Assembly: GCA_964452355.1 (NCBI GenBank)
Contig: CAYVKV010000003.1
Location: 31,152 to 95,151 of the forward strand
Length of the DNA stretch: 64,000 bases
Reading direction: 5' to 3'
Source of the DNA: an uncultured Gammaproteobacteria bacterium
Lineage (GTDB): Bacteria; Patescibacteriota; Microgenomatia; UBA1406; GWC2-37-13
Part shown: piece by piece, positions 23,548 through 58,269 of the stretch
Layout: every line of letters starts with the position of its first letter
Numbering within the stretch: position 1 is the stretch's first letter
Program-made: the position numbers and the translations under genes
Notes under the pieces: model-generated
What the model saw: only the letters and a program-made list of their open reading frames with translations
The model's database searches: none
Told to the model about the DNA's origin: nothing

Positions 23548-24861
23548 ATGGCTCTCGTAAAACAAATCCCAAAAAAAAATATCTTTCTCCTGATCTCGAC
23601 TTCCCTCTTTATTTTAGGGGTAATCTTTTTTTCATTAGCAATCCAAAGATACCAGGTACTTACCTCCTCACGAGCCGAAGATTTCGACCATTACTGTAGG
23701 ATTGATCCAAATGATTGTAAAGCAGGAAATGAATGTTCAAAGGATGGGAGAACCTGTGAAATTAAAACATCAACCTGTGCAAATGGGGTGTATAAAGTAA
23801 ATAAATTTATTTGCGGACCAGGAACGGTCGCGCAGAATCAATACATTTGGAAAGCTCTTGATCAAAATAGTACCGCCTCTTCGTATTGTTCTGGTACTTT
23901 TACCTGTGGACAAGCAACAGCTACCCCAACACCCGGCCAAGCAGGGACAGGCACATGGAACCAATGTGATGCAAGTGGATCAAATAAACCATGCGGGAGC
24001 TGTAGTGTTACAGATATTACAGTCGGTGCCGGTGGTGCTGCTTCAACGACCTTTGGCTGCCAGCTCCTTTGTAATCCTGGTAATTGTCCTTCTGGAACAT
24101 ACCAAATTAATGACACTTCATGGTTTTGGTGCTCTAATAAAGATGGTGCCTCATGCACCCAAGGGAATAGTGACTTGATCGCAAATGTTCATAATACATC
24201 AAGTGTCGGTTCTTTGACTATTAGCGATGCCAGTCCCAATGCTACAAACAATGGCTTCAGTTGGAGCTTTACTATTCCTAATTGGACAGGCTGTGGACGA
24301 GTTCAGACTGACGTTCAAATCAACGCACAAGGCGTGAGCGTAGCTGGTTTAACGAAGAGCTTTGGGTCTGACTGTGCAACAGCACCAACAAACACACCTC
24401 CTCCGGGAACTACGAATACTCCCACAACTCCTCCAAATAATACTAACACGCCGACAACTCCTCCGGGAACTACGAATACTCCCACAACTCCTCCAAATAA
24501 TACTAACACGCCGACAACTCCTCCTACAAATACCCCAACTCATACACCGACAGCAGTCCCACCTACAAGTACGCCAACCAAGACTCCAACAAATACTCCC
24601 ACAAGTACCCCAACAAAGACCGCGACTCCGGTACCAACAAATACTCCCGTTCCAACGAACACTCCGGTACCTACAGCAACTCCGGTACCAACAAACACAC
24701 CGATTCCTCCGACACCAACGACGGTGGTGATCGCACAAGCACCAACTGCGACTCCAACACCAGTGAAGCAACTTACGGTTGACAATCAAAAACCGGGAAT
24801 CACTCCATGGGCACTGATATTGGTACCCATTGGATTGCTGCTCCTTGGACTATTGCTATAA
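23548..24861 (+). CDS. Secreted Cys-rich protein with Thr/Pro-rich linker and conserved hydrophobic C-terminal tail
   Basis: 437 aa. Signal anchor plus IQRYQVLTSSRAED, a ~250 aa region with about 20 Cys, a PTNTP/TPTx linker, and the tail [31 protein letters not shown]. Confidence 0.8.
   Translation: MALVKQIPKKNIFLLISTSLFILGVIFFSLAIQRYQVLTSSRAEDFDHYCRIDPNDCKAGNECSKDGRTCEIKTSTCANGVYKVNKFICGPGTVAQNQYIWKALDQNSTASSYCSGTFTCGQATATPTPGQAGTGTWNQCDASGSNKPCGSCSVTDITVGAGGAASTTFGCQLLCNPGNCPSGTYQINDTSWFWCSNKDGASCTQGNSDLIANVHNTSSVGSLTISDASPNATNNGFSWSFTIPNWTGCGRVQTDVQINAQGVSVAGLTKSFGSDCATAPTNTPPPGTTNTPTTPPNNTNTPTTPPGTTNTPTTPPNNTNTPTTPPTNTPTHTPTAVPPTSTPTKTPTNTPTSTPTKTATPVPTNTPVPTNTPVPTATPVPTNTPIPPTPTTVVIAQAPTATPTPVKQLTVDNQKPGITPWALILVPIGLLLLGLLL
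24401..24520 (+). repeat. Perfect 60-nt tandem duplication inside the Thr/Pro linker
   Basis: 24401-24460 is identical to 24461-24520. It encodes PGTTNTPTTPPNNTNTPTTP twice. Confidence 0.95.
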
Positions 24862-24870
24862 TCTAAATAT

Positions 24871-26001
24871 ATGTCGAGAAAAAGCGTAATGGTCTTGTTC
24901 TCGATACTGCTGATTAGTATTGCAGTGGTCTTGATTTCATTTAGCATCCAAAAATATAGAGTTCTTACCAAGTCTCGGGCCGAAGGACAAAAAACCACTG
25001 AAATGGCTTGTAATACCACTGTCCAACTACTCTCGGATAAATGTTCATCGGGAGTTCTCAATCGAGATGTTTGCGAATTCAAAAATAACAACACAGATAC
25101 TGCACAAGGATGGACAAAATATAAAACACAGGGAGATCCAAAATATGAAAATGTGGACTACTCAAGTATGGGTGCTGGAACTATCAAAATGACTCCCAAT
25201 GGAAGCTCGACGTACTCTGCAGGAGCATATACCCAGGCTTCTGTGACACCAGAAAAAGTGTACTGTGCAAGCTGGCGATGGGGTGCACCTGGAGGACCAG
25301 GCGACCATGGTCGTACTCTCGGGATAGATCCTTATGGTGGCACAGATCCAAACTCTCCAAATGTCATCTGGGGAAACACTCATAGGGGGGCTGGTAGACA
25401 CCTTGATTATGTCCCTCCTGATGTAAATGTGGATATTAAAACAATCGCCAAAAGCACATCGATTACGGTATTTTATAAAGTGGATTACACAGGTAACTCG
25501 AATGATAGCTTGATTTATATCGATGGTATCAACCTCTATGATGAAGGAGTACCGCATTCAGCAATAGCTACGTTGACGCCAACGCCAACTCAGGATATCG
25601 GAAATCCAACACCTACTCTCACTCCTACAACGACGCCATCAACAACTCTCACTGCTACTCCTACTACATCTCCCACTGGTACTCCAATACCAACTCCTAC
25701 TCTCACCAAAACTTCGACACCTTCACCAACTCATACGCTTACCCCAACTTTGACACCAACCCTAACTCCAATACCAACTGCCATTCCAACACAAACTTCT
25801 ACACCCACACCGACAGCGACTCCAATCCCAACCAATACGCCTGTTCCAACAAGTACATTAACCCCAACCAATACGCCTGTTCCAATAAATACTCCAACAC
25901 CAATTACTCAACTTACGGTTGACAATCAAAAACCGGGAATCACTCCATGGACTCTGATATTGGTACCCATTGGATTGTTACTGCTTGGATTGCTACTATA
26001 A
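24871..26001 (+). CDS. Secreted protein (possible beta-sandwich/carbohydrate-binding-like domain) with Thr/Pro linker and the same C-terminal tail
   Basis: 376 aa. Signal anchor plus [14 protein letters not shown], a ~190 aa globular part, a TPTxTPT linker, and the tail [31 protein letters not shown]. Confidence 0.8.
25909..26001 (+). repeat. Dispersed ~93-nt repeat (second copy; the first is at 24769-24861) encoding the shared C-terminal tail
   Basis: The copies are offset by exactly 1140 nt. The first 42 nt are identical (caacttacggttgacaatcaaaaaccgggaatcactccatgg); about 9 mismatches overall by eye. Confidence 0.9.
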
Positions 26002-32348: not shown

Positions 32349-34169
32349 TTATTGAGAAAGACCTCTCATTCCTTTTAGAGCAGTTTCGTTTGTTGGGTCC
32401 AGTTCAAGAGCCTTTTGATATGATTTCCGAGCTAATTCATTCTCTCCTTTATTCATATATACCGTGCCAAGATTAACATAAAGCTCGGGATATGTTGGAT
32501 ACACTTCAATTGCATGAAGCGTATATTTTTCAGATGTCTCAAAATCTCCCTTTTCAAAATACATTGCAGCTATATTTTGATAGGATTGCCACAATGCAGG
32601 GTTGAGCTCAACTGCTTTCAAATAATATTTTTCTGCTTCCTCATTCTTTCCCGCTTGTCTAAATATATTGGCAAGATTGTGATGTGCATCTGGATAACTG
32701 GGACTCAATTCTATTGCACGGCTAAACTCCTGAGCGGCACTTTGAAGATCGCCGATCCGCGCATAGTAGTCTCCCAGATTATTGTGCGTTTTTGGATCAG
32801 ATGGAGATGCTTTTCCGGTTGCAATCCATAATTTGTCTTCATTTTGCCAGTCTATATTTCGAACAATCGTACGCACAGAAAAAGACAAGAGGAGTATCGT
32901 AAAAATGATGTACCCAACCGACTTGTATGTTTTGCTGTCAATGAGCTTGGAGAGGAGTACCGAAAATACAAAAAAGAGACCGATGGAACCTAAGTAAGAA
33001 TATCTCTCTGCGACTAACCAAGATAAGCCGAATGGATTGAGGGTTGGAAGCAACGTAATGATAAAAAAACTGAGCCAAAAAAATACCGATTTATTTTTTC
33101 GAAAACTGACCATTATCAATCCAAAAAAAAGTAATGTGAGGCTCAGTAGAACTAAAAATTGAAACGGTGAAAAACGAAACTCCGATTGATACAGAGTGAG
33201 GTGTCGTGGCCAAATAAAAAGCTTGATGTAGGTGCCAAGTGCCGCTGGAATTTGAAAAAAGGGATTTTCGACGTTGAACGTTGCGGTTTTACCTTGAGAC
33301 ACTGCCAAGTACTCAATTCGTTCTTGTACCCGCGTCAGAATAATAAGTCCCCAGATAAATGAAACACTAAAGTACGAGCCGAGAAGAATCCAACTTTTTC
33401 GTACCGAACCAAATGTAAATTCGTATAATCCAATAATGAAGGGAAATACGATTACTTTTTCGGACGCAGATAACGAAATAATAAACGCTAAGATCGAATA
33501 AGCAATATACCGTATTAATTTCTGGGATTTAAATCGTAAATAGAAATAAAATGATGTCAAAATGCCAAACCCTGCCTGCGCATAAATACCTCCTGATATC
33601 CATGTCACCGACTCAGTCATCATCGGATGCACTGCGGCAAATGAAGCAACAATGAATGGCAAGAATTTCTTTTTCGAGAAATAGGGAACAATGAGATACG
33701 TCATCCAAACAAATCCCAGATGAAAAAGTATGTTCCAAATGCGAAATGCAAACGGAGTAAGCCCACCAATAGTATAAGAAATCAAATATTGAGCCGCACG
33801 GATTATAAACGTCGGAACCGCAAATAAATAGCCAGGTTCTTTAAATGCATTCTCATTTCTCAATATGGCATACACGTCGTCTGATACAAACTCAGCTCCG
33901 AATCCATTTGCATAGACAATGAGGATAAACACGAAGAAAAGGATAAAGTAAGGAACATGCTCTTTGAAAATAAATTTTGGTTGTTCTTGAATACTCTCTT
34001 CTGATTTTGTGACGAATCTTTTATGATTCGTCACATGTTGAAGAATTAAATCCTCGGGAATTTTTTTTCGTTTTGAAATCATTTCGACCGATTCTTTCGG
34101 ATAGTGTTTTTGGATATATCTTTTTTGAGAGTACGTCAACTTCATAGTATCCATTGTAGCGTTTTGCAT
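32349..34169 (-). CDS. TMTC-like GT-C glycosyltransferase: polytopic N-terminal domain plus C-terminal TPR repeats
   Basis: 606 aa. The first extracytoplasmic loop is GFGAEFVSDDVYAILRNENA (the FVxDDxxAI motif of TMTC/DUF1736 proteins). About 11 TM helices, then 4-5 TPR units (NLGDYYARIGDLQSAAQEFSRAIELSPSYPDAHHNLANIF...). Confidence 0.7.
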   Translation of the reverse strand: MQNATMDTMKLTYSQKRYIQKHYPKESVEMISKRKKIPEDLILQHVTNHKRFVTKSEESIQEQPKFIFKEHVPYFILFFVFILIVYANGFGAEFVSDDVYAILRNENAFKEPGYLFAVPTFIIRAAQYLISYTIGGLTPFAFRIWNILFHLGFVWMTYLIVPYFSKKKFLPFIVASFAAVHPMMTESVTWISGGIYAQAGFGILTSFYFYLRFKSQKLIRYIAYSILAFIISLSASEKVIVFPFIIGLYEFTFGSVRKSWILLGSYFSVSFIWGLIILTRVQERIEYLAVSQGKTATFNVENPFFQIPAALGTYIKLFIWPRHLTLYQSEFRFSPFQFLVLLSLTLLFFGLIMVSFRKNKSVFFWLSFFIITLLPTLNPFGLSWLVAERYSYLGSIGLFFVFSVLLSKLIDSKTYKSVGYIIFTILLLSFSVRTIVRNIDWQNEDKLWIATGKASPSDPKTHNNLGDYYARIGDLQSAAQEFSRAIELSPSYPDAHHNLANIFRQAGKNEEAEKYYLKAVELNPALWQSYQNIAAMYFEKGDFETSEKYTLHAIEVYPTYPELYVNLGTVYMNKGENELARKSYQKALELDPTNETALKGMRGLSQ

Positions 34170-34237: not shown

Positions 34238-35059
34238 ATGCAAACTGTTTCGGTTATCGTTCCTACGCATAATTCGGGTAAAACTCTTACCCGATGTCTT
34301 AAATCAGTTCGATCTCAAACTTTTAAAAATATTGAACTCATTGTTGTTGATAATTTTTCTACAGACAACACCTTGAAGATTGCCAAACGCTTCGCAGACA
34401 AGGTCTTTTCGGTTCCTCCTGAAAGAAGTACCCAACGCAATTATGGAGTTAAAAAAAGTACCGGTGAATATATTATGTTTGCTGATTCAGACATGTACCT
34501 CAGTTCATCTGTTATACGGGAATGCGTGAGTGCCTTGAAAAAGGATATCATTGGAATATATATTCCTGAACAAATTCTTGGCGATTCTTTTTGGGCAGAG
34601 GTACGAAATTTTGAAAGAGGATTTTACAATAGTACCTGCGTCGATGCGATTCGTTTTTTGAGGAAAAAAGATTTTGAAAAAATGGGAGGATTTGACGAGC
34701 AGTTAAGAGTGGCAGAGGACTGGGATTTTGACCGGCGAATACGAAACTATGGAACGACCGCCGAAATTACTGCACATGTATTTCATGACGAATCGGCTTT
34801 TTCGATTGATACATATATTGGGAAGAAAAAATCCTATTTTGATGATCTTCAAATATATCAACAAAAATGGAACGGGCATCCTGAAGTAAATAAACAACTA
34901 GGTTTTATGTACCGAATGATAGGGGTATTTATTGAGAATAATAAATGGAAACGATTGCTGCGGCAGCCAATTTTATCTATGGCAATGATAGTACTTCGAA
35001 CGATGGTTGGTTTTGAGTATCTTATTTCAAAAATCGTATTAAGAAAAGTTACATCATAA
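34238..35059 (+). CDS. Glycosyltransferase family 2
   Basis: VSVIVPTHNSGKTLTRCLKSVRSQTFKNIELIVVDNFSTD and FADSDM are GT-A/GT2 motifs. Confidence 0.88.
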   Translation: MQTVSVIVPTHNSGKTLTRCLKSVRSQTFKNIELIVVDNFSTDNTLKIAKRFADKVFSVPPERSTQRNYGVKKSTGEYIMFADSDMYLSSSVIRECVSALKKDIIGIYIPEQILGDSFWAEVRNFERGFYNSTCVDAIRFLRKKDFEKMGGFDEQLRVAEDWDFDRRIRNYGTTAEITAHVFHDESAFSIDTYIGKKKSYFDDLQIYQQKWNGHPEVNKQLGFMYRMIGVFIENNKWKRLLRQPILSMAMIVLRTMVGFEYLISKIVLRKVTS

Positions 35060-35067
35060 CTTCAACT

Positions 35068-35787
35068 ATGCAAAATAATACAAATCCCCTCAGTTCAACG
35101 TGGAATATTCAATGGCGAAATTATAATAAAGCTCCTTTTTTCAAGCCAAATCATAAAGTTATTCAGGAGATTGTTCGCTGTTTTGATGGAAATGTAAAGA
35201 ATAAGAAAATACTCGAAATCGGTGCCGGTTCCGGTTGTGACGTTCTTTGTTTGTCCAAAATGGGAGCTTACGGATATGCGTTGGATTTCTCTTCCGAATC
35301 AATCAAAACAATGCGATACTGGTCGAAGAAAACAAAAACGAATATCAGTATCAAGCAGGCAGATATTAGAAACTTACCTTATGAAAAGTCACTATTTGAT
35401 ATGATTTATTCGGTAGGACTTATGGAACATTTCGAAAACCCCCTTCCGTTACTGGAAAAGCAATTATCTTCAATAAAAAAGGGAGGATTTCTTCTCATTG
35501 ATCTTCCACAGAAATATTCGTTATACACTATTGCAAAACACGTTCGAATGAGATTGGGTACCCATCCATTTGGCTGGGAAACAGAATATTCCTTGGGAGA
35601 ATTGAGAAAAATGTCTGAAAAATTAAACACAAAGATCGTCAGATGGTATGGAAGAGATCTGGATATTATTCAAAAAATCCCCCTCAGCATTAGACCATAT
35701 GTTGATTCCGTATACAAGAAAACTATTGAAAACACGTGGATTTCTCCCTATATCGGCCTTTCCATTGGAATCATCTTGCAAAAATAA
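35068..35787 (+). CDS. Class I SAM-dependent methyltransferase
   Basis: Motif I ILEIGAGSGCDVLCL, YALDFS, FDMIYSVGLMEHF and KKGGFLLI. Confidence 0.8.
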   Translation: MQNNTNPLSSTWNIQWRNYNKAPFFKPNHKVIQEIVRCFDGNVKNKKILEIGAGSGCDVLCLSKMGAYGYALDFSSESIKTMRYWSKKTKTNISIKQADIRNLPYEKSLFDMIYSVGLMEHFENPLPLLEKQLSSIKKGGFLLIDLPQKYSLYTIAKHVRMRLGTHPFGWETEYSLGELRKMSEKLNTKIVRWYGRDLDIIQKIPLSIRPYVDSVYKKTIENTWISPYIGLSIGIILQK

Positions 35788-35808
35788 TCAGCATTTTTGA
35801 GAATATCC

Positions 35809-36837
35809 ATGAAAAATCAATCAACAAAAAAACAGAAAACAATCTCACTCATTGTCGTAAACTACAATGGTCGAGAACATTTGGATGAATATTTTACCTC
35901 TGTTTTTTCACAAACAAGAGTTCCTGACGAAGTGATCATGTTTGACAACTTGTGCACCGATGGCAGTCGAGCATTTGTAGGAAAAAAATTCCCAACCGTC
36001 AAAATCATCACCGAGGATCGATTTAACACCGGAACAGCACGCGCATACAACACAGCCTTTCAAAAATCTTCAGGAAATTTTGTTGTTTTACAGTCAAATG
36101 ATATTGTTTTGGATTCTAAGTGTATTGAAACCTTATATAAGAAAATAAGCAGTGATGATTCAATAGGCATCGTCTCGAGCATTACAATACGGTATCCCAA
36201 TAAAAAATTGCGAAAATTTATCGTAGATCAAGCGGGGGGACAGATGGATATATATGGATTTGGCATGCAGAACTATCCGCAAGTGCCGGTAATTGATATC
36301 CCTGATGCCGGAGAAGTTTTTTTTGCATATGGTGATTCGATCATTATGAGAAGGGAGGCTTTTCAAAAAGTAAACGGACTTGATGAACGAATGTTTATGC
36401 TTCATGACGATATAGATTTATCCTGGCGCATGAGACTGCTTGGCTACAAAATCATGTATACAAAACATTCCTTTGTATATCACAAGGGAAGTGCAACGAT
36501 TGGATCAAATTACAAACGTCCACAGATACGATTTTTGAGTGAACGAAATGGAATGAGATGCTATTTAAAAAATACTTCATATGCTCATTTCTTCAAAACC
36601 TTTCCCATGTATATGATACTCTTATGCGGAGAAATGGGATATTTTTTATTCCGAGGAAAATTTCAATTATTTTTTGCAGATGTACGAGCCATACTTTGGA
36701 ATCTGTACTATCTTCCCGAAACACTCCTCCTGAAAATTCAAATTCAGTCTCATGCAAAAATGGATAATACAAACAAACTTTTCCACCACAAAAGCTTCAA
36801 ACTCATGCTCTTCAAAAATTTTAGCAAATCACTTTGA
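35809..36837 (+). CDS. Glycosyltransferase family 2 (rhamnosyltransferase-like)
   Basis: ISLIVVNYNGREHLDEYFTSVFSQT...MFDNLCTDGS and a later HDDIDLSWR. ATG at 35809 is preferred over the TTG at 35797. Confidence 0.85.
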   Translation: MKNQSTKKQKTISLIVVNYNGREHLDEYFTSVFSQTRVPDEVIMFDNLCTDGSRAFVGKKFPTVKIITEDRFNTGTARAYNTAFQKSSGNFVVLQSNDIVLDSKCIETLYKKISSDDSIGIVSSITIRYPNKKLRKFIVDQAGGQMDIYGFGMQNYPQVPVIDIPDAGEVFFAYGDSIIMRREAFQKVNGLDERMFMLHDDIDLSWRMRLLGYKIMYTKHSFVYHKGSATIGSNYKRPQIRFLSERNGMRCYLKNTSYAHFFKTFPMYMILLCGEMGYFLFRGKFQLFFADVRAILWNLYYLPETLLLKIQIQSHAKMDNTNKLFHHKSFKLMLFKNFSKSL

Positions 36838-36887
36838 AATCTCCTCAAAATTATTATGGTACTATTTAGTACAATGGTGCTACTTTT

Positions 36888-38675
36888 ATGAAAGTTTCAG
36901 ATTACATCGTTTCCTATCTTGAATCAATCAAAGTTACGACCGTGTTTGGTATAACCGGATCGGTGATCGCCGATATTCTCGACTCCTTCCACGGTAAGAA
37001 AAAAATTCATCTTTATCATCCTATTCACGAACAAACGGCTGCAATGTCAGCACATGCATACACCATGGCCAGTGGAAAAATCGGTGTCGCAATCTCTACA
37101 TCCGGCCCGGGAGCCACGAATCTTTTGACCGGTCTCACGTGTGCATGGTATGACTCGATTCCCGCACTCTATATCAGTGGTCAAGTAAATAGCAACTTCA
37201 CCAGGGGCAAAAAGGCAGTCCGCCAGATTGGATTTCAAGAAACTGACGTGGTCGGCATCGTCAAATGTGTTACAAAATATACGACGATGGTGACCGATCC
37301 TTCCCTGATTCGGTATGAACTTGAAAAGGCAGTTCACCTTGCCACTACTGGACGGCCAGGTCCGGTACTTCTTGATATTCCCATCGATGTACAAAGAGCC
37401 GATATCGACCCGTCAAAATTAAAACGGTTTATTCCAGAAATACAATCGAAAACAAAAAATAGTACATTAATACAAGAAAAAATAAAAGAATATATCACTG
37501 ATCTAAAAAAAGCCAAACATCCTGTGGCGCTTGTTGGTGGGGGAGTAACACACGCAAACGCGATCAAAGAGGCAGAATCACTCTTTCACTATCTGAAGGT
37601 TCCGACGGTACTGACATGGGTCGGCATCGATACGCTCCCCAAGGCGCACCCACTCTATCGTGGACGGATTGGTACCTATGGCCAACGAGGAGCAAATTTT
37701 ACCATTCAAAATGCAGATCTATTACTATCTCTCGGGTCTCGTCATGATGGAAGACAGACCGGCGGTCGACTTGATAGCTTTGCCCGAGAAGCAAAGAGAT
37801 ATATTGTTGATGTTGACGAAGGAGAACTCAAGGATCAGCCAATTCATGGTCATGTCAATATTCATGCAGATCTGAAGGAGTTTATTCCACTCCTTACTCA
37901 GAAAATTCAATCAGAAAACATTCCTTCGTTTACTCATTGGCTCAAAGAGACAAAAGAGTGGCAATTGGAGTTCCCAACGGTTCTCCCCAATTATGAAAAG
38001 CCAAATCGAAGAGTAAACACCTATTCGTTTATGAAAAAACTATCCCATATTTTGGAAGTGGGGGATATTATCGTTGGAGATTGCGGCGGGAATATCGTAC
38101 CGCTTGCACAGGCTTTTGAGGTCAAGAAACATCAAAAGCTCATCACGTCTTGGTCTCATAGCCCGATGGGATATGCATTTGCGGCAAGCATAGGAGCGTA
38201 CCTTGGGAAAAGTAAAGAGACAAAACATGTCGTTTGTACCATTGGAGATGGGGGTATGCAAGTGAATATTCAAGAACTTCAGACGTATAAGATGTACAAC
38301 ATTCCGGTAAAAGTTTTTGTACTCAACAATCAGTCATACGGAATTATCATGCAGTACCAAGACACCTATCTGAACTCGCGATATGTTGGCGCAGCTCCAA
38401 AATGGGGATATACCTACCCGGATTTCAGAAAAGTAGCTGAGGCATTTGGTATCAAGACTGAACTCATACGTACAAATGGAGAAGTTGAGTCAAAGATCAA
38501 AAAAGTACTTGCAATGAAAGGACCCGTGATATGTGAGGTCAATCTTGAGAAAAAAACAGTCCTCGAACCGAGACTCGGATGGAATGCCGGTATTGAAGAT
38601 CAGTTTCCAAAAATTGATCAGGATGTTTTGAAGCGTCACTTGTACGTAAAACAGTTTAACCCTGATAAGAAGTAG
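36888..38675 (+). CDS. Thiamine-diphosphate-dependent enzyme, acetolactate-synthase-large-subunit-like (YerE-like context)
   Basis: 595 aa. GPGATNLLTGLTCAWYDSIPALYISGQV, and the C-terminal TPP motif GDGGMQVNIQELQT...VLNNQSYG. Confidence 0.85.
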   Translation: MKVSDYIVSYLESIKVTTVFGITGSVIADILDSFHGKKKIHLYHPIHEQTAAMSAHAYTMASGKIGVAISTSGPGATNLLTGLTCAWYDSIPALYISGQVNSNFTRGKKAVRQIGFQETDVVGIVKCVTKYTTMVTDPSLIRYELEKAVHLATTGRPGPVLLDIPIDVQRADIDPSKLKRFIPEIQSKTKNSTLIQEKIKEYITDLKKAKHPVALVGGGVTHANAIKEAESLFHYLKVPTVLTWVGIDTLPKAHPLYRGRIGTYGQRGANFTIQNADLLLSLGSRHDGRQTGGRLDSFAREAKRYIVDVDEGELKDQPIHGHVNIHADLKEFIPLLTQKIQSENIPSFTHWLKETKEWQLEFPTVLPNYEKPNRRVNTYSFMKKLSHILEVGDIIVGDCGGNIVPLAQAFEVKKHQKLITSWSHSPMGYAFAASIGAYLGKSKETKHVVCTIGDGGMQVNIQELQTYKMYNIPVKVFVLNNQSYGIIMQYQDTYLNSRYVGAAPKWGYTYPDFRKVAEAFGIKTELIRTNGEVESKIKKVLAMKGPVICEVNLEKKTVLEPRLGWNAGIEDQFPKIDQDVLKRHLYVKQFNPDKK

Positions 38676-38676
38676 T

Positions 38677-39717
38677 ATGAACTCCACCATTACCCATGAT
38701 ATCGAACAGATTGTCGATCGATTAGATCTCAGTCCATTGAAAGGAAAGAGCGTTCTTCTTACCGGCTCAAATGGTTTTCTTGGAAGATACATCGCGATGG
38801 TCGTTTCGATGTTGAATCAAAAATATGATTATGGAACCACGTTGTACTGTTGGAGCCTCCACGCGCCAAATGATGATATAAAAAACCTTGCAAAAAATGA
38901 CCCAAACATCATCCCTCAATCCGTAAATCTTTCAAAACCAATTACCTTTACAAAAGAAGTTGATTTCATTCTTCATGCGGCAGGTTATGCGCAGCCAAAA
39001 AAATTTATTGAGAATATATTTGAAACCATTGAGCTAAATATTCACGCAACTCACTCCCTTCTCGAAATTGCAAAAAAGAATAATGCCCGTTTCTTATTTT
39101 TCAGTTCCGCAGAGGTGTATGGCGATATTCCAAAAAATCTTATTTCCGTATCTGAGAAATACAACGGTTGTATCGACACCTCAAATATTAGATCAATGTA
39201 TGCTGAATCGAAACGTCTTGGCGAGACTATCTGCTCAATGTACCGACAAAATGAAGACGTAAATGCATTTGTCGCACGTATTTCTCATGTATACGGACCG
39301 GGTATCTCAACAACTGACAAAAGGGTGATTGGAGAATGTATACGAAAAGCATTTGAAGAAAAAGTCATAACTCTTGAGGATCAGGGCACCGCAATAAAAA
39401 CGTGGGGATATATCGCAGATATCATACAAATGATTCTCAATATACTCACTCATGGAACTGAATTGATATATAACGTAGGAGGTATTGATACCATGAGCAT
39501 CAAAGAATTAGCTGAAGAAATCGGTCGCCAAACAAATGCGGATGTGGTCACTCCTCAATCAAATGGAAAAAAAGACAATAGCATACATGATCCTCAATTT
39601 GTAAAATTGAATATCACAAAATATTCGAAAGAATTCGGCGATCCAACATTTATATCATTTTCAGAAGGGATACGACGAACAATAGAATGGAATAGAAACA
39701 TTAGTCAACTCGTATGA
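38677..39717 (+). CDS. Extended SDR NAD-dependent nucleotide-sugar epimerase/dehydratase/reductase
   Basis: Rossmann fold LLTGSNGFLGRYI, SSAEVYG and catalytic YAESK. The start is 1 nt after the TPP-enzyme stop. Confidence 0.8.
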   Translation: MNSTITHDIEQIVDRLDLSPLKGKSVLLTGSNGFLGRYIAMVVSMLNQKYDYGTTLYCWSLHAPNDDIKNLAKNDPNIIPQSVNLSKPITFTKEVDFILHAAGYAQPKKFIENIFETIELNIHATHSLLEIAKKNNARFLFFSSAEVYGDIPKNLISVSEKYNGCIDTSNIRSMYAESKRLGETICSMYRQNEDVNAFVARISHVYGPGISTTDKRVIGECIRKAFEEKVITLEDQGTAIKTWGYIADIIQMILNILTHGTELIYNVGGIDTMSIKELAEEIGRQTNADVVTPQSNGKKDNSIHDPQFVKLNITKYSKEFGDPTFISFSEGIRRTIEWNRNISQLV

Positions 39718-40910
39718 ATAAAGACAGATTATTTTGGAAACTCCAAGACAACATTCTTGATACAGAAAATAAACAAACCCTCATCAAATTCATAAAATCT
39801 ACCGATCGCTTTACTCAGTTTGAGGAGGTGAAAAAATTTGAAAGAGAATGGTCGACATGGCAAGGGAGAAGGCATAGTGTTTTTGTAAATTCAGGGAGTT
39901 CTGCAATCCTGGTCATTATTTCTGCACTGAAAGAATATTACAAATGGGGTAAAGGCGCTGAAATAATGGTACCCGCGGTAACATGGATTACTGATATTTC
40001 AGTACTTCTTCAGCTTGATTTAAAACCGGTATTTGTCGATGTGAATCTTGAAGATTTTTCATTTGATTATGAAGATTTAGCATCAAAGATTACTTCAAAA
40101 ACAAAAGCGATATTTCTCACTCATCTCATTGGGTTTCCAGCAGATATTAATAAAGTGAAGCAAATGATTGGTAAGAAAAAAATCCATCTCATTGAAGATT
40201 GCTGTGAATCACATGGAGCAAAAATTTCAAATACAAAAGTCGGCAATCACGGATTGGTAAGTTTGTTTAGTTTTTACTGGGGTCACCATATTACGACTGT
40301 TGAGGGTGGAATGATCTGCACCGATAATAAAAAACTATATCATCTCTTTCTGCTCAAACGCTCTCACGGCCTGGCTCGGGAACTTCCCAAAAAACTGCAT
40401 CAATATTACAAAAACAAACACAAAGACATTGATTTTAATTTTCTCTTTCTTACCAATGGGTTCAATGTTCGAAATACAGAACTCAATGCAGTACTGGGAA
40501 GTTCACAATTAAAAAAACTGGATAAATACATTGAACATAGGAATAAAGTACATGAAAAATTCCTGAAAATTATCAGTCATTATCCGGAATATTTATTTGC
40601 ACCCTACAAAGACGGTATCTCCTCATTCTCACTGCCATTCATCATGAAGAAACAATATATCAAAAATCGACTCCAAAAGTTTCTGACAAAAAATGGCGTA
40701 GAAACGCGACCTATTATTGGAGGAAATTTACTTCGCCAACCATTTTTAAAAGCTGAATTTAAAAATAAAGGTTTTCCCAATGCAGATTTTCTTCATAAGA
40801 ATGCATTTTATATTGGAAATAATCAATTCGTGGATTCTCAGAAACTCAACCGACTCAAAGAACTACTGGATATATTTTTTACCAATCCAAAAAATATCAC
40901 CCATGAATAA
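39714..40910 (+). CDS. DegT/DnrJ/EryC1/StrS-family PLP/PMP enzyme with His in place of the Schiff-base Lys (nucleotide-sugar 3-dehydratase, ColD/E1-like)
   Basis: 398 aa. SFYWGHHITTVEGG (40269-40310) aligns with SFHxxKxITxxEGG of family aminotransferases, with K replaced by H191. ATGA-type overlap with the SDR gene. Confidence 0.7.
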   Translation: MNKDRLFWKLQDNILDTENKQTLIKFIKSTDRFTQFEEVKKFEREWSTWQGRRHSVFVNSGSSAILVIISALKEYYKWGKGAEIMVPAVTWITDISVLLQLDLKPVFVDVNLEDFSFDYEDLASKITSKTKAIFLTHLIGFPADINKVKQMIGKKKIHLIEDCCESHGAKISNTKVGNHGLVSLFSFYWGHHITTVEGGMICTDNKKLYHLFLLKRSHGLARELPKKLHQYYKNKHKDIDFNFLFLTNGFNVRNTELNAVLGSSQLKKLDKYIEHRNKVHEKFLKIISHYPEYLFAPYKDGISSFSLPFIMKKQYIKNRLQKFLTKNGVETRPIIGGNLLRQPFLKAEFKNKGFPNADFLHKNAFYIGNNQFVDSQKLNRLKELLDIFFTNPKNITHE

Positions 40911-41835
40911 ATCATCAAAAATATACATTGCCGGACATACGGGACTTATCGGAAGCGCCCTTGTTCGCAAATACACCCGAGAAGGATACCCGAATATTCT
41001 GACCAAAACTCATCACGAACTTGATTTAACCGACAACACAAAAGTCAATCAATTTTTTTTAAAGAAGCAGCCTGATTATGTGATTTTGGCTGCAGCAAAA
41101 GTTGGGGGAATACAAGCAAATATTGCGCGTCCTGCACGTTTTTTGATTGAAAATATGCTCATTCAAAATAATGTCATTCTGTCAGCCCTTGAATATGGGG
41201 TAAAAAAGTTGTTATTTATCTCCTGTGGATGTGCATACCCGACACAATCTCCGCAACCGATAAAAGAAGAGTACCTCCTGTCGGGGAAGCTTGAACAAAC
41301 AAATGAAGGTTTTGCGATTGCAAAAATTGCAGGAATGAAACTCTGTGAAAAAATCAACCTTGAATATAAGAAAGAGTTTCTTACATGCATCGCAGCAAAT
41401 ACCTACGGAGAACATGACCATTTTGATGAAGAAAGATCGCACGTCATATCGGCCCTCATAAAGAAGTTTCATCAGGCAAAAGTCGAAAATCTATCTAATG
41501 TAACAATCTGGGGAACGGGAACGGCTCAGCGAGAATTTATCTACGTTGATGATCTTGCTGATGGTTTGCATCTTCTTATGGAGGAATATTCCAGTTCCGA
41601 ACCGATTAATATCGGCAGTGGTCAAGAATTCACTATCAAAAAATTGAGTGAAATTATTCAAAGAGTAGTAAAATATGAAGGAAAAGTCACATTTGATTCC
41701 TCAAAACCTGACGGGATGAAACGAAGAATATTTGATAGTAATAAAATCATGGATCTTGGATTTAAGCCACAAATATCATTTGAAGAAGGAATAAAACGAG
41801 CGTATCAGTTTTATTGCGTGTCATCCCGCACTTGA
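40903..41835 (+). CDS. GDP-L-fucose synthase family (Fcl / GDP-L-colitose synthase ColC-like 3,5-epimerase-4-reductase)
   Basis: KIYIAGHTGLIGSALVRKY and ELDLTDNTKVNQFFLKKQPDYVILAAAKVGGIQAN match Fcl closely. ATG at 40903 overlaps the upstream stop by 8 nt. The track start 40780 is rejected. Confidence 0.85.
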   Translation: MNKSSKIYIAGHTGLIGSALVRKYTREGYPNILTKTHHELDLTDNTKVNQFFLKKQPDYVILAAAKVGGIQANIARPARFLIENMLIQNNVILSALEYGVKKLLFISCGCAYPTQSPQPIKEEYLLSGKLEQTNEGFAIAKIAGMKLCEKINLEYKKEFLTCIAANTYGEHDHFDEERSHVISALIKKFHQAKVENLSNVTIWGTGTAQREFIYVDDLADGLHLLMEEYSSSEPINIGSGQEFTIKKLSEIIQRVVKYEGKVTFDSSKPDGMKRRIFDSNKIMDLGFKPQISFEEGIKRAYQFYCVSSRT

Positions 41836-41843
41836 TGCGGGAT
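41823..41843 (+). other. Small hairpin spanning the fcl-like stop codon
   Basis: ATCCCGCA-CTTGA-TGCGGGAT (8-bp stem, 5-nt loop) covers the TGA at 41833-41835. No T tract, so it is not a canonical terminator. Confidence 0.3.
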
Positions 41844-41868
41844 CCACTCTTAATTCACAACAAACATC

Positions 41869-42411
41869 ATGAGCATTTTTTCAAAATTAATTTGTTATTT
41901 ACTGAGGATTCCCGCACAACTCAAGGGAATGCGGTTTGGAAAAAATAGTTTTATCGGCCCAGGGTATGATTTTCTCTTTTTAAATCTGAGAAATGTAGAA
42001 GTCAAAAACAATGTTATGATCGGGTCTCGGGCATGGTTTCAGACCGTTGACTCTGGAAAAATAACGATTGGATCGGGGACACATATCGGACGAGATGCTG
42101 TTCTTTCTGCACGGGATGAAATAACAATCGGTGAAAATTGTTTACTGTCATATCGTGTGTCCATTCTTGACCACGATCATAAACTTGATCGTTCAATAAA
42201 ATCTCCTATGAGGAGCGGTCTCACGAAAGGACAAAAAGTGACAATTGGCAATAACTGCTTTATCGGAGCAAATGTTTGTATTATAAAAGGAGTTACTCTT
42301 GGAAATCATTGTGTCGTTGGTGCAAATAGCGTCGTGACAAAATCCTATCCGGCATTTTCAATGTTGGGTGGAAATCCTGCAAAACGTATTAAAAAACTTC
42401 CCTTAAAATAA
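41869..42411 (+). CDS. Left-handed beta-helix (hexapeptide repeat) O-acetyltransferase
   Basis: Hexapeptide repeats IGNNCFIGANVCIIKGVTLGNHCVVGANSVV. About 180 aa, like WbbJ/MAT-type sugar acetyltransferases. Confidence 0.85.
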   Translation: MSIFSKLICYLLRIPAQLKGMRFGKNSFIGPGYDFLFLNLRNVEVKNNVMIGSRAWFQTVDSGKITIGSGTHIGRDAVLSARDEITIGENCLLSYRVSILDHDHKLDRSIKSPMRSGLTKGQKVTIGNNCFIGANVCIIKGVTLGNHCVVGANSVVTKSYPAFSMLGGNPAKRIKKLPLK

Positions 42412-43680
42412 TTACACAATCTTCAAATAGGGGATCGTAATGATAAACTGCCCACCACGTTCTCGATATTCTTTATTTTTTTCGATAATCTCTTTGGCAA
42501 AATTCCACGACATGAGAAGTGCATAGTCGGGAGTATCTGTTTTTAATTTAGTTTCTGAATAAATGGGAATATGAGTTCCCGGTGTATATTTTCCTTGTTT
42601 ATAGGGAGTTGAGTCGACAATATAATCGAGAATGTCTGTTGAAATATTGCAATAATTAGTAAGGACATTACCTTTTGCAGAAGCGCCATACCCAATGATT
42701 GATCGATTCTCCTTTTTTATTCGTTTTAAGAAATGAAGTAAATCCCGTTTGATCACTTTGACTCTCCGTGCAAACTCATCATAGGTGGATCTTACATGTA
42801 ATTTTTTGAGATTTTCCTCTGCGACAAATTTTCCAACCCGTGGGTGGATTGAATACGAACCATCAACATGAGCAGCAAAAATACGTACCGTCCCACCATG
42901 AATACTTTGTTTTTTGATATCAACAATTTTGAGTTTATATTTTTCAAATAACTTCATGAGTGGTCGAATGGAAATGTAGCTCAGATGTTCATGATAGATT
43001 GTGTCAAATTCATTATTGTCCAATAAATCAATGAGATATGGCGCCTCAATCACAAATAAACCTTTTGAATGAAGGAGTATTTTTACTCCCTTCATGACGC
43101 TGTGAAGATCATCAATATGCGCAAAAACATTCGTTGCGGTGATCGCTTTAGCAGTGCCAAATTTTTGGTAAACTTTTTGGGCCGTTTTTTCATTGAAATA
43201 ATCGGCTATTGTTGCGATGCCACGGGCGTTTGTGTCTTTGGCAATATTTTCTGCAGGATCAATACCGAGAACGTTCAGTTTTTTCTTTTTGAAAAATGAC
43301 AAGAGTGTCCCGTCATTACTTCCAATATCAATAACCAGTTCATTTTTGAGGGGGTTTATCGCGGCGATCACATCGGTTGCTAATTTTTGAAAATGTTCAA
43401 CCATTGTTTTGGATGCTGAAGGAATATAGAGATAATTCTTAAACATAATTTCTGCGGGTATTGTATGCGTAAGTTGCACAAGCCAACATGATTCACATAC
43501 GCAGATTTTCAAAGGGTAATGGAGTTCTTGCTTTTTCAGATCTTTCTTCCCAAGAAACCCATTGGGTATCGGCATAGATCCGAGAGAGAGGAAGGAATAT
43601 AGTTTTGAAGACCCACACATCCGACAGGTGGTGCGTCGATATTCGCTTGCAGAAACCTTCTTTTTTTGGCGCTTTCTCAT
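42412..43680 (-). CDS. NDP-hexose C-methyltransferase family (TylC3/EvaC-like: Zn-ribbon + class I MT + C-terminal domain)
   Basis: 422 aa. CRMCGSSKL...PLKICVCESCWLVQL...FKNYLYIPSASKTMVEHF, then VIDIGSNDGTLL. Its stop codon abuts the acetyltransferase stop with 0 nt between them. Confidence 0.75.
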   Translation of the reverse strand: MRKRQKKKVSASEYRRTTCRMCGSSKLYSFLSLGSMPIPNGFLGKKDLKKQELHYPLKICVCESCWLVQLTHTIPAEIMFKNYLYIPSASKTMVEHFQKLATDVIAAINPLKNELVIDIGSNDGTLLSFFKKKKLNVLGIDPAENIAKDTNARGIATIADYFNEKTAQKVYQKFGTAKAITATNVFAHIDDLHSVMKGVKILLHSKGLFVIEAPYLIDLLDNNEFDTIYHEHLSYISIRPLMKLFEKYKLKIVDIKKQSIHGGTVRIFAAHVDGSYSIHPRVGKFVAEENLKKLHVRSTYDEFARRVKVIKRDLLHFLKRIKKENRSIIGYGASAKGNVLTNYCNISTDILDYIVDSTPYKQGKYTPGTHIPIYSETKLKTDTPDYALLMSWNFAKEIIEKNKEYRERGGQFIITIPYLKIV

Positions 43681-43712
43681 AGTACAATTATACTGAAAAA
43701 AGAATTCACACT

Positions 43713-44630
43713 ATGAGCACTTCAAAAAAACCAATGGTCAGCGTTGGCATTCCCGTTTGCAATGGGGAACAGTACATTCAAGAATCTCTTGTTTGCATTT
43801 TGAATCAGACATACTCAAACCTTGAGATTATCATTTCTGACGATAACTCAAAAGATAAATCGTACAAAATTCTTAAATCGTATGCTACCACTGACTCACG
43901 AATCACATTGGTTCAGCAAAAAAAACGAATTGGACCAATCAACAATTTCAATTATGTACTGGAGAAAGCACGGGGAGAATATTTTGTTTGGGTAGCACAA
44001 GATGATCTGCATGATAAGGAGTTTATAAAAGCACTGCTTGATCACATGCAAAAAGATAAGAATGTAACCCTTGCAATGAGTGATTATCGAAATCTATACA
44101 AGGACAAAACGTATAAAGTCTATGAAGCGCCGTCTCATAGCATAAAGTCACCGACTGATTCCCTAAATTACTTTCTCAAAACACATAATCTTTCACTGTT
44201 TTATGGTCTCCACCTGACGAATGTTCTTAAGAAAATTGGAGGATATCATACGGATATGAGACCATACTTTGGAAGCAGTGATTTTTTGATGATCTTTAAA
44301 ACGCTTCTTCTTGGAAATCTGAGTTTTGTTGACAAAGTGTTGTTTTACAAACGTGACACAGGAATGTATACCGATGAATTTTCAAATTTACGAAACCGTC
44401 CAATGAACATTTTGAGTAATAAAATAGTAAGATATGCATTATTTCCCATTCATTATGTCTTTGATTGTATTTTTGGAATAAATTATTTATTGCGATCCGA
44501 TCTAAAAATTGTTGACAAAATGCAAGTTGCCCTGTGGCTTACCAAATGCACGTTTCGACTTTTTGGAGGATATATTGTCAAATCAACAAAAGGGAGCATG
44601 ATATTATTTCGAAGAATGATAGGGGTATGA
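43713..44630 (+). CDS. Glycosyltransferase family 2
   Basis: VSVGIPVCNGEQYIQESLVCILNQTYSNLEIIISDDNSKDKS and WVAQDD. Confidence 0.9.
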   Translation: MSTSKKPMVSVGIPVCNGEQYIQESLVCILNQTYSNLEIIISDDNSKDKSYKILKSYATTDSRITLVQQKKRIGPINNFNYVLEKARGEYFVWVAQDDLHDKEFIKALLDHMQKDKNVTLAMSDYRNLYKDKTYKVYEAPSHSIKSPTDSLNYFLKTHNLSLFYGLHLTNVLKKIGGYHTDMRPYFGSSDFLMIFKTLLLGNLSFVDKVLFYKRDTGMYTDEFSNLRNRPMNILSNKIVRYALFPIHYVFDCIFGINYLLRSDLKIVDKMQVALWLTKCTFRLFGGYIVKSTKGSMILFRRMIGV

Positions 44631-45724
44631 AAAAAATTATCGTATTCTTAAATGCATATAGTCAGGGAATAAGTGGTGCAGACAAAATTTGTATTGAAAC
44701 GTGGAAGCATTTTGATGAGAAGCATGTCACGGTCATGACATCGCGTGAAGGAAAGAACGTATGCGAAAATTTTAAACTCAAAGCGCGCTTTATCATCACC
44801 ACATCCGAACAGACTTTTCATAATCCACTCAATACCTATCTTAAACGAATCATTATTGGCATTTGGAGAGCGATTACCGCTTCAAATCAAGATGTATTGT
44901 ATTCATCATCTGACCAACTGCCTGATATTCTTCCGGCTCTGATTTTCAAACTCAGAAACAGAGATGCTCAATGGATTGTGCGTAGCTATCATATCATTCC
45001 AAAAAAACGACTCATATCCTATCTTGCTCAAAGATTTAGCTTTTTTATCATAAATATTCTTGAAGCGACAATGATCACTGCAAGCACATTGATGAAGAAT
45101 GAGTTGCTTCGGAATGGATTTCCATCAGAGCATGTTCATATTGTTTATCCGGGAATTACGATATCTAAAATGCTAAAGAGAAGAACAACAAATAAATACG
45201 AGGCAGTGTTTATGTCGAGACTTCACGAGTCGAAAGGTATTTTTGACCTTATTGATATCTGGAAAAAAGTTATAAAAAAAATGCCGAATGCTTCACTCAA
45301 AATCATAGGAACTGGTGAAAAACAGACAATTCAGAAACTAAATAATTTAATTAAGATAAATAATCTTGAAAGTACTATTACGCTTCTCGGACACCAGTCT
45401 GATGAAAAAGCAAAGTTAATTATTTCTAATTGTCATTTATTCGTATTTCCCAGTCATGAAGAAGGGTTTAGCCTGACAATCGCCGAGGTACTGCTCATGG
45501 AGATACCAATCATAACCTATGATCTGCCGATTTATCAGGATGTATTTCCCAATGCATTATCTAAGGTACCCAATGCGGATATCAATGCGTTTGCAGATCG
45601 GATTATTGATGTATTTCACAACAAACACAAGTATGATAAGAAAGTTAATCTTGGAAGAGATATGGTAAAAAAATATACATGGAAACATGCAATTGCAAAT
45701 GAACTTAGATTATTAGATTTATGA
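44627..45724 (+). CDS. Glycosyltransferase family 4 (GT-B, Glycos_transf_1)
   Basis: The ATG at 44627 forms an ATGA overlap with the upstream stop. C-terminal FVFPSHEEGFSLTIAEVLLMEIPIITYD is the EX7E motif. Confidence 0.85.
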   Translation: MKKIIVFLNAYSQGISGADKICIETWKHFDEKHVTVMTSREGKNVCENFKLKARFIITTSEQTFHNPLNTYLKRIIIGIWRAITASNQDVLYSSSDQLPDILPALIFKLRNRDAQWIVRSYHIIPKKRLISYLAQRFSFFIINILEATMITASTLMKNELLRNGFPSEHVHIVYPGITISKMLKRRTTNKYEAVFMSRLHESKGIFDLIDIWKKVIKKMPNASLKIIGTGEKQTIQKLNNLIKINNLESTITLLGHQSDEKAKLIISNCHLFVFPSHEEGFSLTIAEVLLMEIPIITYDLPIYQDVFPNALSKVPNADINAFADRIIDVFHNKHKYDKKVNLGRDMVKKYTWKHAIANELRLLDL

Positions 45725-46815
45725 GTATCATAAATAACATTCGATATACAATTCAATACATCCGAGTCACAATTATTGAATATACTTTATATGCAATAGA
45801 TGATCCGAAGCTTATTTGGAATATTCCCCGACGATTTTTTGAAGAAATCTCATTGTACGTCAAATATTGGATTGCAAAAAGTACTCATTCGAGCAAAAAT
45901 ACTCACGTCCGACAGGAGCTTTTTAAGCTTAACGCAGAGATGGAAAAAGGAGATGATCTTTATAAGCCATCTCTTATTTGGAAAGATATTTATGAGCAGT
46001 TTGATCGCGTTCTTCATGTTGAACATTTATCAAACTTTAAATCACAACGATACAATTCGCGATTTGCAGATCTGCCGCCGACTTCTCAGGATATTTACCC
46101 CCGATTTCTTTGGATCTATTGGAACAGTATTAAACAGAGAGACACATTAAACTTACTAAACACTATCCATGAGCCAAAGCTTGGAGGAGCAAAAACGTAT
46201 AAAATCGATGGGAAAGAAATAACTCACGACTTACTTCAATCTTTCGATGAATTTTATCAAATGTATCCCCACTTAAATTCTTTAAAGAATCATACTGTTA
46301 TTGCAGAGCTGGGAGCAGGGTATGGTCGACTGGGGTACGTTTTTCTCAAAGCAATGACAAATAACACCTATGTTGTCATTGATCTTCCAGGAACCTTGGT
46401 TATTGCCCAATATTACCTTTCAAAAGTCTTCTCAAATGAAAAAATATTGACGTACCAAAAAAGCAAAAAGCTCAAAAAAATAACTAAAAAAATACTCTCT
46501 CAGTATAGAATTGTATTTCTTGCCCCGTGGCAACTTCCCGATGTCGATGAAAAAGTCTTTGACTTATTTATAAATATTTATTCATTTCAAGAAATGACCG
46601 TTGACCAAATTCAAAACTACTTTCGCTTAATTGATTTAACATGTTGTCGTTTATTCTTTACCAAACAATTTACTCGTTCATACAATCCAAAAGATGAGAT
46701 TGTTATTCTGAAAAAACAGTACCCTGTCTATTCAACATGGAAAAAAATCTATGACCGTCCCTCGACAATAAGTCAAGATATTTTTGAAGCGCTCTATAAA
46801 ATTCCATCTCATTAA
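45721..46815 (+). CDS. Putative SAM-dependent (sugar O-) methyltransferase-like protein
   Basis: 364 aa with an ATGA overlap upstream. The glycine-rich IAELGAGYGRLGYVFLK...VVIDLP resembles the motif I/post-I arrangement. The family assignment is tentative. Confidence 0.45.
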   Translation: MSIINNIRYTIQYIRVTIIEYTLYAIDDPKLIWNIPRRFFEEISLYVKYWIAKSTHSSKNTHVRQELFKLNAEMEKGDDLYKPSLIWKDIYEQFDRVLHVEHLSNFKSQRYNSRFADLPPTSQDIYPRFLWIYWNSIKQRDTLNLLNTIHEPKLGGAKTYKIDGKEITHDLLQSFDEFYQMYPHLNSLKNHTVIAELGAGYGRLGYVFLKAMTNNTYVVIDLPGTLVIAQYYLSKVFSNEKILTYQKSKKLKKITKKILSQYRIVFLAPWQLPDVDEKVFDLFINIYSFQEMTVDQIQNYFRLIDLTCCRLFFTKQFTRSYNPKDEIVILKKQYPVYSTWKKIYDRPSTISQDIFEALYKIPSH

Positions 46816-46828
46816 CGTGCAAAAAAAT

Positions 46829-48544: not shown

Positions 48545-48625
48545 TACAAATAAACGAGTTTAAGCGTTGTCATTTGTACAAAAGAGTTTAAAATGAGATA
48601 TGCGCAAAAATTTCGTTAAACCAAT

Positions 48626-50564: not shown

Positions 50565-50656
50565 ATTTTATCCTATAAAAATTCATTCAAAGGAAGTCAA
50601 CTCATCGTCTTTTCGATCAAATATTGTTATTCCTATACAAATCTTGTATCCTATTT

Positions 50657-53049: not shown

Positions 53050-53115
53050 CTGCATTTCTCTTTCTGTTTTGAAATGTAGTTACAAAATGGTCGATTTAAT
53101 TGGTAGGATAAGGAT

Positions 53116-55368: not shown

Positions 55369-55438
55369 ATGTAATACATATGTAGTTACATATGAATTAC
55401 TCTTGCATTCAGAGACCGGACTTGCTACCTTATAAATA

Positions 55439-58254: not shown

Positions 58255-58263
58255 TTTTCTTTG

Positions 58264-58269
58264 TATAAT
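58264..58269 (+). promoter_or_regulatory. Candidate -10 box (TATAAT) 10 nt upstream of the GT2 ATG at 58280
   Basis: Perfect TATAAT. It overlaps the in-frame ATG at 58268, which favours 58280 as the start. Confidence 0.3.

Follow-up and report, generated by a model that had tools for sequence, protein, structure and literature searches.

TMTC1–4 are animal O-mannosyltransferases of cadherins and protocadherins in the endoplasmic reticulum (CAZy glycosyltransferase family GT105); the sole characterized homologs of the protein described here, they act on proteins (PMC7801869, PMC11292533), and mutations in TMTC3 cause cobblestone lissencephaly (PMC7801869). A bacterial enzyme of comparable design is TfpW, the pilin O-arabinofuranosyltransferase of Pseudomonas aeruginosa, which transfers a polyprenyl-phosphate-linked sugar to protein Ser/Thr. 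Its N-terminus lies in the cytoplasm; it is predicted to have 11 transmembrane (TM) helices and carries, in periplasmic loop 1, a DDx motif that is essential, as well as a tetratricopeptide repeat (TPR) domain at the periplasmic C-terminus, and its closest structural template is ArnT (bioRxiv 10.1101/2020.04.19.049825). Here we describe a TMTC-like gene in a stretch of 64,000 nucleotides (the window) from an uncultured, Roizmanbacteria-like bacterium with a small genome (Patescibacteria contig CAYVKV010000003.1, positions 31,152 to 95,151; GTDB lineage Patescibacteriota, Microgenomatia). We read its product, with a probability of roughly 60%, as a glycosyltransferase of the GT-C_A fold with the ancestry and architecture of TMTC1–4 that would move a polyprenyl-phosphate-linked sugar onto an acceptor outside the cytoplasm, with protein Ser/Thr as the most likely one.

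The protein shares with TMTC1–4 the layout of an inward N-terminus, 11 TM helices and an outward C-terminal TPR domain, but its TPR array is shorter (four repeats only), it has an extra cytoplasmic N-terminal helical module, and its setting is that of a bacterial carrier lipid, a Wzx-type glycan cluster and a B12-type radical S-adenosylmethionine (SAM) partner. The same combination of 11 TM helices, DDx motif and periplasmic TPR domain describes TfpW, a likeness drawn from the published description and not from sequence; whereas tfpW adjoins its pilin substrate, the TMTC-like gene adjoins glycan-synthesis genes. The actinobacterial and fungal PMT enzymes (GT39) together with Ppm1 follow the same logic of a polyprenyl-phosphate-sugar synthase and a GT-C enzyme working outside the membrane. 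PMT substrates are Ser/Thr/Pro-rich secreted proteins. A GT39 identity was rejected for our protein, which had no PF02366 match at E ≤ 10, no MIR domain among its Pfam hits, a C-terminus made of TPRs and an hhalign probability of 0.3% to Pmt1, pointing to a different GT-C family. Finally, Gtr-type and GT136 systems likewise combine a GtrB/DPM1-like GT2 with a GT-C enzyme in surface-glycan clusters, but their GT-C enzymes modify polysaccharides and are without TPR domains (PMC11127046).

The open reading frame (ORF) probably starts at M9 (ATG at 34145), since this residue is nearly invariant and most homologs align from there (coordinates of all features are given in Table 1). A full-length AlphaFold2 (AF2) model built on 40 homologs (predicted local distance difference test score, pLDDT, 90.3; predicted template modeling score, pTM, 0.83) contained four N-terminal helices (aa 13–53), 11 membrane helices (aa 68–440) and then 10 TPR-type helices. 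Pfam recognized four TPR units at aa ∼461–594, and on the full protein Pfam and NCBIfam reported TPR repeats alone (aa ∼455–600), in line with the original prediction of about 11 TM helices followed by a C-terminal TPR array. Lys and Arg residues cluster at the N-terminal end and within the short loops of that side, and these positive-inside counts place the N-terminus inside and the C-terminus, with the TPR domain, outside the cell. The first extracytoplasmic loop (EL1) contains FVSDDVYAILRNENA (aa 94–108, window 33846–33890), with FVSDD from residue 94, so that the FVxDDxxAI..N motif that had been predicted for this loop is indeed there. When all six frames of the window were translated, the pattern FV.DD..AI..N came up a single time, compared with a mean of 0 in 200 shuffles. 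Of 10 animal TMTC sequences, eight contain it, and all 10 do so once F[VC] is accepted at its start.

Homology to TMTC was visible only with a published TMTC alignment; Pfam, NCBIfam and PDB sequence searches gave nothing. The membrane domain alone (aa 1–450) had no Pfam, NCBIfam or PDB sequence match even at E ≤ 10, and a profile of 22 family sequences matched no PDB chain. Scanned singly against Pfam, the 22 membrane domains showed PMT_2 in 10 cases (best 6e-8) and PMT weakly in two; DUF1736 (PF08409), which Pfam detects in human TMTCs at E < 1e-30 (PMC7801869), was found in none of the 22 at E ≤ 1. For a controlled comparison, ten TMTC N-terminal domains (human, zebrafish, and fly) were taken from the Additional file 1 alignment of Eisenhaber et al. 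2021 (PMC7801869), with the ArnT, Pmt1, PglB, and STT3 rows of that alignment and the second GT-C of the window as negative controls. A hidden Markov model (HMM) of the family matched all ten TMTC domains (E 2.7e-25 to 5e-11; HMMER, Z = 10^6) and, with all filters off, none of the four control rows. In the reverse search, a TMTC HMM matched our protein at E 3.3e-16 (aa 80–107, 129–251, and 341–438) and did not match the second GT-C. In profile–profile alignment with hhalign, the family and TMTC1–4 profiles aligned over 361 columns with 99.8% probability (E 3e-28, 24% identity), compared with 0.1%–0.4% for the controls, namely the four single sequences (ArnT 0.1%, Pmt1 0.3%) and the second GT-C. 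The DUF1736 segment, which corresponds to the TM7–TM8 loop, was skipped by the TMTC HMM yet aligned by hhalign, with [DE]NP and LxxxP..L kept. These comparisons support a specific homology of this GT-C glycosyltransferase to TMTC1–4, beyond a mere GT-C-like resemblance. Of the earlier TMTC/DUF1736 label, the TMTC half is supported by the profile comparison; the Pfam DUF1736 domain was not detected in the family, and the motif cited for it lies in EL1 and not in the DUF1736 loop.

Structural comparison yielded a different ranking. With the full-length model Foldseek returned TPR proteins alone, and a separate membrane-only AF2 model was built (pLDDT 88.8), for which the credible matches were ArnT (first), STT3, PglB, AglB, DPY19, and Emb only; there was no TMTC structure in the PDB searched. 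ArnT in first place, together with the PMT_2 matches in 10 of the 22 family members (none in the target itself), would fit a lipid glycosyltransferase of the ArnT sort, with a membrane lipid or lipoglycan as the molecule it decorates in place of a protein or polysaccharide. We regard this as very improbable: profile similarity is nil to ArnT and overwhelming for TMTC, ArnT is without a TPR domain, and human TMTCs analyzed by HHpred give nearly the same structural order, again with ArnT best (PMC7801869), so the ranking does not discriminate. Because human TMTCs share this best match and a TMTC-like loop is present in our protein, the top position of ArnT does not speak against TMTC identity, and the relation to ArnT and PMT_2 appears to be clan-level kinship only. 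An O-antigen ligase or polymerase of the PglL/PilO/WaaL type was also rejected, as there was no Wzy_C signal and the fold matched GT-C_A.

We mapped the motif residues of TMTC1 through the hhalign alignment, and the numbering agreed with PMC7801869. Motif M1 (D52/D53, EL1) corresponds to D97/D98, invariant in 40 of 40 sequences, and M7 (ERxxY, E403/R404/Y407, EL5) to E388/R389/Y392, which are also invariant. M4 (KE(T/Q)xxT, K219-E220-T221, EL3) is represented by S236-E237-K238, in which the Glu is kept and a Lys stands two positions later, and M6 (PxxP) is half kept (P389 as P375 only). Three motifs are lost: M2 (SHKSYRP, EL1) retains only its Arg (R93, now R124), M3 (RxD, R167/D169, EL2) has become a GxY that is near-invariant in the family (G194/Y196), and M5 (D330/W331, EL4) is replaced by Y327/Q328 (Y-H in most members), after which comes S-E. 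TMTC and our protein further share PFxF[HR]xxNxxxH, AVHPxxTExV, and an RNxDW junction ahead of the TPRs; the family-invariant set comprises D97/D98, E237, E388-R389-x-x-Y392, AVHPxxTE, and PFxF[HR]xxNxxxH. According to docking models of TMTC, M2 and M3 contact mannose, M4 and M5 bind metal, and M4 and M7 bind phosphate (PMC7801869). On this mapping, the catalytic and phosphate-binding parts seem to be conserved, which fits a polyprenyl-phosphate-sugar donor, and the sugar/metal pocket seems to have been rebuilt. With the M2, M3, and M5 residues replaced, the enzyme probably handles its sugar differently from TMTC, and this sugar may be one other than mannose.

In the pathway we propose, a DPM1/GtrB-like GT2 encoded in the window probably charges the polyprenyl-phosphate carrier with a sugar, which the TMTC-like GT-C would take up at the outer face of the membrane and pass on to an acceptor outside the cytoplasm, recruited presumably with the help of the TPR domain. 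On the analogy of TMTC and TfpW, both of which act on proteins, Ser/Thr residues of a surface protein would be the most likely acceptor. The candidate synthase, originally described as a Ppm1/DPM1-like GT2 at 58280–59092, spans 58196–59092 and is of the polyprenyl-phosphate-sugar synthase class, as had been proposed, judging from its best matches: in the PDB to the dolichyl-phosphate mannose (Dol-P-Man) synthase of Pyrococcus (5mlz, 7e-14), GtrB (1.5e-10), and ArnC, and in NCBIfam to PgfS (2.7e-16) and ArnC (1e-11), all of the latter below cut-offs. A homolog directly adjoins the TMTC-like gene in three related loci (L015, L034, and L042). The same GT2 is the only candidate initiator for a Wzx-type cluster in the window.

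Table 1. Positions in the window of the TMTC-like gene, its parts and the features discussed with it
Feature	Position	Strand	Remarks
Second GT-C candidate, PMT_2/ArnT type	6105..7844	minus	HPDE in first loop
Two Thr/Pro-linker surface proteins, tandem, with common C-terminal tail	23548..26001	plus	Proposed acceptors
TMTC-like GT-C/TPR glycosyltransferase gene	32349..34169	minus	606 aa as ORF; 598 aa from probable start M9
Extracytoplasmic TPR domain (aa 444–605)	32355..32840	minus	Four canonical TPRs plus capping helices
GT-C membrane domain, 11 TM helices (aa 68–440)	32850..33968	minus	AF2, Foldseek, hhalign to TMTC
First extracytoplasmic loop EL1 (aa 90–138)	33756..33902	minus	Invariant catalytic pair D97-D98 within FVSDDVYAILRNENA
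N-terminal cytoplasmic four-helix module (aa 9–53), K/R-rich	34011..34145	minus	AF2 and subfamily consensus
Divergently transcribed GT2 opening the glycan cluster	34238..35059	plus	Paired with TMTC-like gene in 19/59 loci with enough flank
Glycan biosynthesis cluster	34238..49888	plus	GT2s, GT4, methyltransferases, thiamine pyrophosphate enzyme, short-chain dehydrogenase/reductase epimerases/dehydratases; also DegT-family enzyme, left-handed β-helix (LbH) acyltransferase, C-methyltransferase (minus strand)
Wzx-type flippase	48626..49888		Part of glycan cluster
Four membrane-anchored Thr/Pro-linker proteins	49896..57706	plus	Three with M23 peptidase domains; proposed acceptors
DPM1/GtrB/ArnC-type GT2, candidate polyprenyl-phosphate-sugar synthase	58196..59092	plus	PDB and NCBIfam matches
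GT2 with hydrophobic C-terminal region	59089..60111	plus	Recurrent neighbor of TMTC-like gene, 19/34 loci with ≥8 kb on both sides
B12-type radical SAM enzyme, HpnJ-like, 572 aa	60429..62147	plus	HpnJ 1.9e-40 (below cut-off), AprD4 weak

Gene neighborhoods were compared across 80 related loci (1.3 Mb), using the window proteins as phmmer queries with best-hit assignment. The family is embedded in Wzx-type surface-glycan gene clusters. Within 10 kb of the TMTC-like gene, best hits fell to the GT2 type that opens the glycan cluster in 46 loci, the 59089-type GT2 in 42, the radical SAM enzyme in 41, Wzx in 30, and GT4 in 27. Flanks of 8 kb or more on each side were available for 34 loci; of these, 19 have the 59089-type GT2, 18 the radical SAM enzyme, 14 a GT4, 13 Wzx, and six a strong DPM1-like GT2. 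The radical SAM enzyme is the commonest immediate downstream neighbor (within 4 kb in 28 of 63 loci), with counterparts in relatives at, for example, 11681–13351 of locus L005 and 11630–13291 of locus L008, and a role in remodeling a lipid-linked sugar is a possibility. In the window itself, the trio of the DPM1-like GT2, the 59089 GT2, and the radical SAM enzyme lies 24 kb off, past the glycan cluster and the M23 genes. The gene is separated from the divergent GT2 at 34238 by a promoter region of 68–92 bp. That GT2 was rejected as a polyprenyl-phosphate-sugar synthase, as its best matches were GT2s of the chondroitin/heparosan synthase type and dolichyl-phosphate mannose synthase (DPMS) scored only 6e-4; by these matches it is an ordinary chain-building GT2.

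Several observations weigh against a protein acceptor reached in the way we propose. The conserved neighbors of the family are glycan-synthesis genes and not surface proteins; a Thr/Pro-rich ORF lies within 10 kb in only four of the 80 loci and an M23 homolog in one. A DPM1-like GT2 occurs within 10 kb in just ∼18%–33% of loci, besides being distant here, and no GtrA-type or MATE-type donor flippase was identified in the window. Pfam sees no DUF1736 in the family. Motifs M2, M3, and M5 are not conserved, other family-invariant residues standing in their place, and a different chemistry may follow from their loss. With four repeats the TPR array is short, and its weak profile hits include BcsC and PgaA-like families. 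Bacterial TPRs also bind or escort polysaccharides. In another reading, the GT-C belongs to a three-component system that modifies glycans, together with a GtrB-like synthase and a flippase, and would add a side-chain sugar to the polysaccharide of the Wzx cluster, lipid-linked or wall-attached, with the TPR domain binding the polymer or export/assembly machinery and not a protein substrate. The location inside glycan clusters in most of the 80 loci, the divergent promoter region shared with the cluster, the presence of a DPM1/GtrB-like GT2, the wide distribution of three-component GT-C systems acting on glycans (PMC11127046), and the lack of surface-protein genes among the conserved neighbors are all in keeping with it. 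We nevertheless consider this alternative possible but on balance unlikely: proteins are the substrates both of TMTC, the nearest characterized homologs, and of TfpW, the twin in architecture, the glycan-modifying GT-Cs already known (GtrC types and GT136) bear CBM-like or no extra domains and not TPRs (PMC11127046), and the missing GtrA-like flippase counts against such a system as well.

The composition of the glycan cluster bears on a further alternative. Among the ORFs scanned in the 64-kb window, we found no initiating phosphoglycosyltransferase, Wzy polymerase, O-antigen ligase (Wzy_C), or LCP ligase. The GT-C could instead be a terminal en bloc transferase (an O-oligosaccharyltransferase or ligase), receiving a glycan that the DPM1/AglJ-like GT2 begins on polyprenyl monophosphate and Wzx flips, and passing it to surface proteins or the wall; an initiator and a ligase, both missing from the cluster, would thereby be accounted for. 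The GT2s weakly match AglJ, AglG, and a Dol-P hexose transferase of the archaeal dolichyl-phosphate (Dol-P) pathway, the sugar genes vary across loci and the GT-C is conserved, and the leading structural matches include STT3, PglB, and AglB. All of this evidence is contextual, an initiator or ligase may lie elsewhere in the genome, TMTCs transfer single mannoses, and Wzx is within 10 kb in only ∼38% of loci, and we give this reading a small chance. We hold marginally less likely still its archaeal-style form, in which the DPM1/AglJ-like GT2 would start the glycan, GT2s and GT4 extend it, Wzx flip it, and the TMTC-like GT-C transfer it en bloc to surface proteins, the HpnJ-like B12 radical SAM enzyme possibly remodeling it. 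If true, bacteria would possess an O-oligosaccharyltransferase of a new class, related by homology to the TMTCs of animals.

If single-sugar transfer to a protein is the correct reading, the window offers several candidate acceptors. The Thr/Pro-rich ORFs that had been predicted at 23.5–26 kb and 49.9–57.7 kb are present, six in all. The four downstream proteins, one of them a 222-aa protein encoded at 49896–50564, share a Thr/Pro linker, a QGEVKS-like motif, and a C-terminal TM module, and their M23 domains were detected at E 1e-10 to 4e-13; in the two upstream proteins, the common tail is followed by a hydrophobic stretch that resembles a sorting or anchor signal. The proposed link between these proteins and the enzyme found no support at the neighborhood level, and co-localization with Thr/Pro linkers was rejected as a trait of the family given its frequency across loci. 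Two of the four Thr/Pro-rich loci (L006 and L008), and also L001, are among the closest relatives, with the whole region syntenic; because the positive loci are mainly such close relatives, proximity looks like inherited synteny and not independent co-occurrence. The Thr/Pro linkers are a possible acceptor on the strength of their proximity in this lineage. An alternative candidate is a type IV pilin-like protein with an N_methyl motif and a T2SSG domain at 693–1247 (plus strand). Pilins are classic O-glycosylation targets in other bacteria.

We asked how widely such enzymes are distributed. A homolog search returned hundreds of relatives from Microgenomates and other Patescibacteria, a few of them already named "protein O-mannosyl-transferase" by the Joint Genome Institute (JGI), and the closest species-representative locus was from a Candidatus Roizmanbacteria metagenome-assembled genome (85% identity). 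With a cut-off of E ≤ 1e-3, an exhaustive search gave 18,722 representative clusters, and with E ≤ 1e-30 it gave 341, by which the family is very large and Patescibacteria-wide. In the literature searched, we found no description of a TMTC-like enzyme in Patescibacteria or of a characterized bacterial GT105 member. The protein appears to be a divergent new member of the TMTC kind, with an architecture that is common and already partly auto-annotated; to this our analysis adds a controlled test of TMTC homology, a motif map, a lineage-specific association with Thr/Pro linkers, and recurrent gene partners. It also corrects the earlier picture, in that the Thr/Pro-linker link is not family-wide and the partners that recur are GT2s and the B12 radical SAM enzyme. 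Few recurrent candidates are at hand for the way in which the episymbiotic cells of Patescibacteria decorate their surface, and this family is among them. Direct enzymology of TMTC proteins is limited, and compact bacterial homologs (∼600 aa) in which the catalytic and phosphate-binding motifs are retained could offer tractable models of structure and mechanism.

The N-terminal module that sets our protein apart from TMTC is predicted with high confidence (pLDDT ∼90; AF2 helices 13–22, 28–35, 39–48, and 50–53). The subfamily conserves it (consensus LTxxQKxYI), and the published alignment of animal TMTCs has no such module. A known DNA-binding domain was considered for it and rejected, the PDB hits being insignificant (TetR-type regulator, E 0.32).

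The second GT-C of the window had been described as GT39/PMT-like, an identity we could not sustain: there was no PMT or MIR signal, and the protein itself had no Pfam or NCBIfam match. PMT_2 is frequent among its homologs, DUF2723 or Glyco_transf_22 occurs in some, and one homolog bears the name "ArnT family"; judged by them, it is a generic GT-C of the PMT_2/ArnT type and not GT39.

Two other genes of the window were of interest. Within the glycan cluster, positions 45721–46815 (plus strand) encode a soluble-looking protein of 364 aa with no Pfam hit and a homolog in the glycan cluster of locus L007; its ELGAGYGRLG stretch recalls a SAM-binding glycine-rich loop. Adjoining the radical SAM/GT2 trio, a GDSL/SGNH-family protein (62372–63304, minus strand) could be a glycan O-acetyl esterase or transferase. 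Finally, in some relatives TMTC-like paralogs, two or three in number, stand in tandem or share a contig (locus L020, 9965–13448; contigs P0023/P0036/P0042 and P0029/P0039/P0041), which suggests that the copies may have diversified in donor or acceptor specificity.

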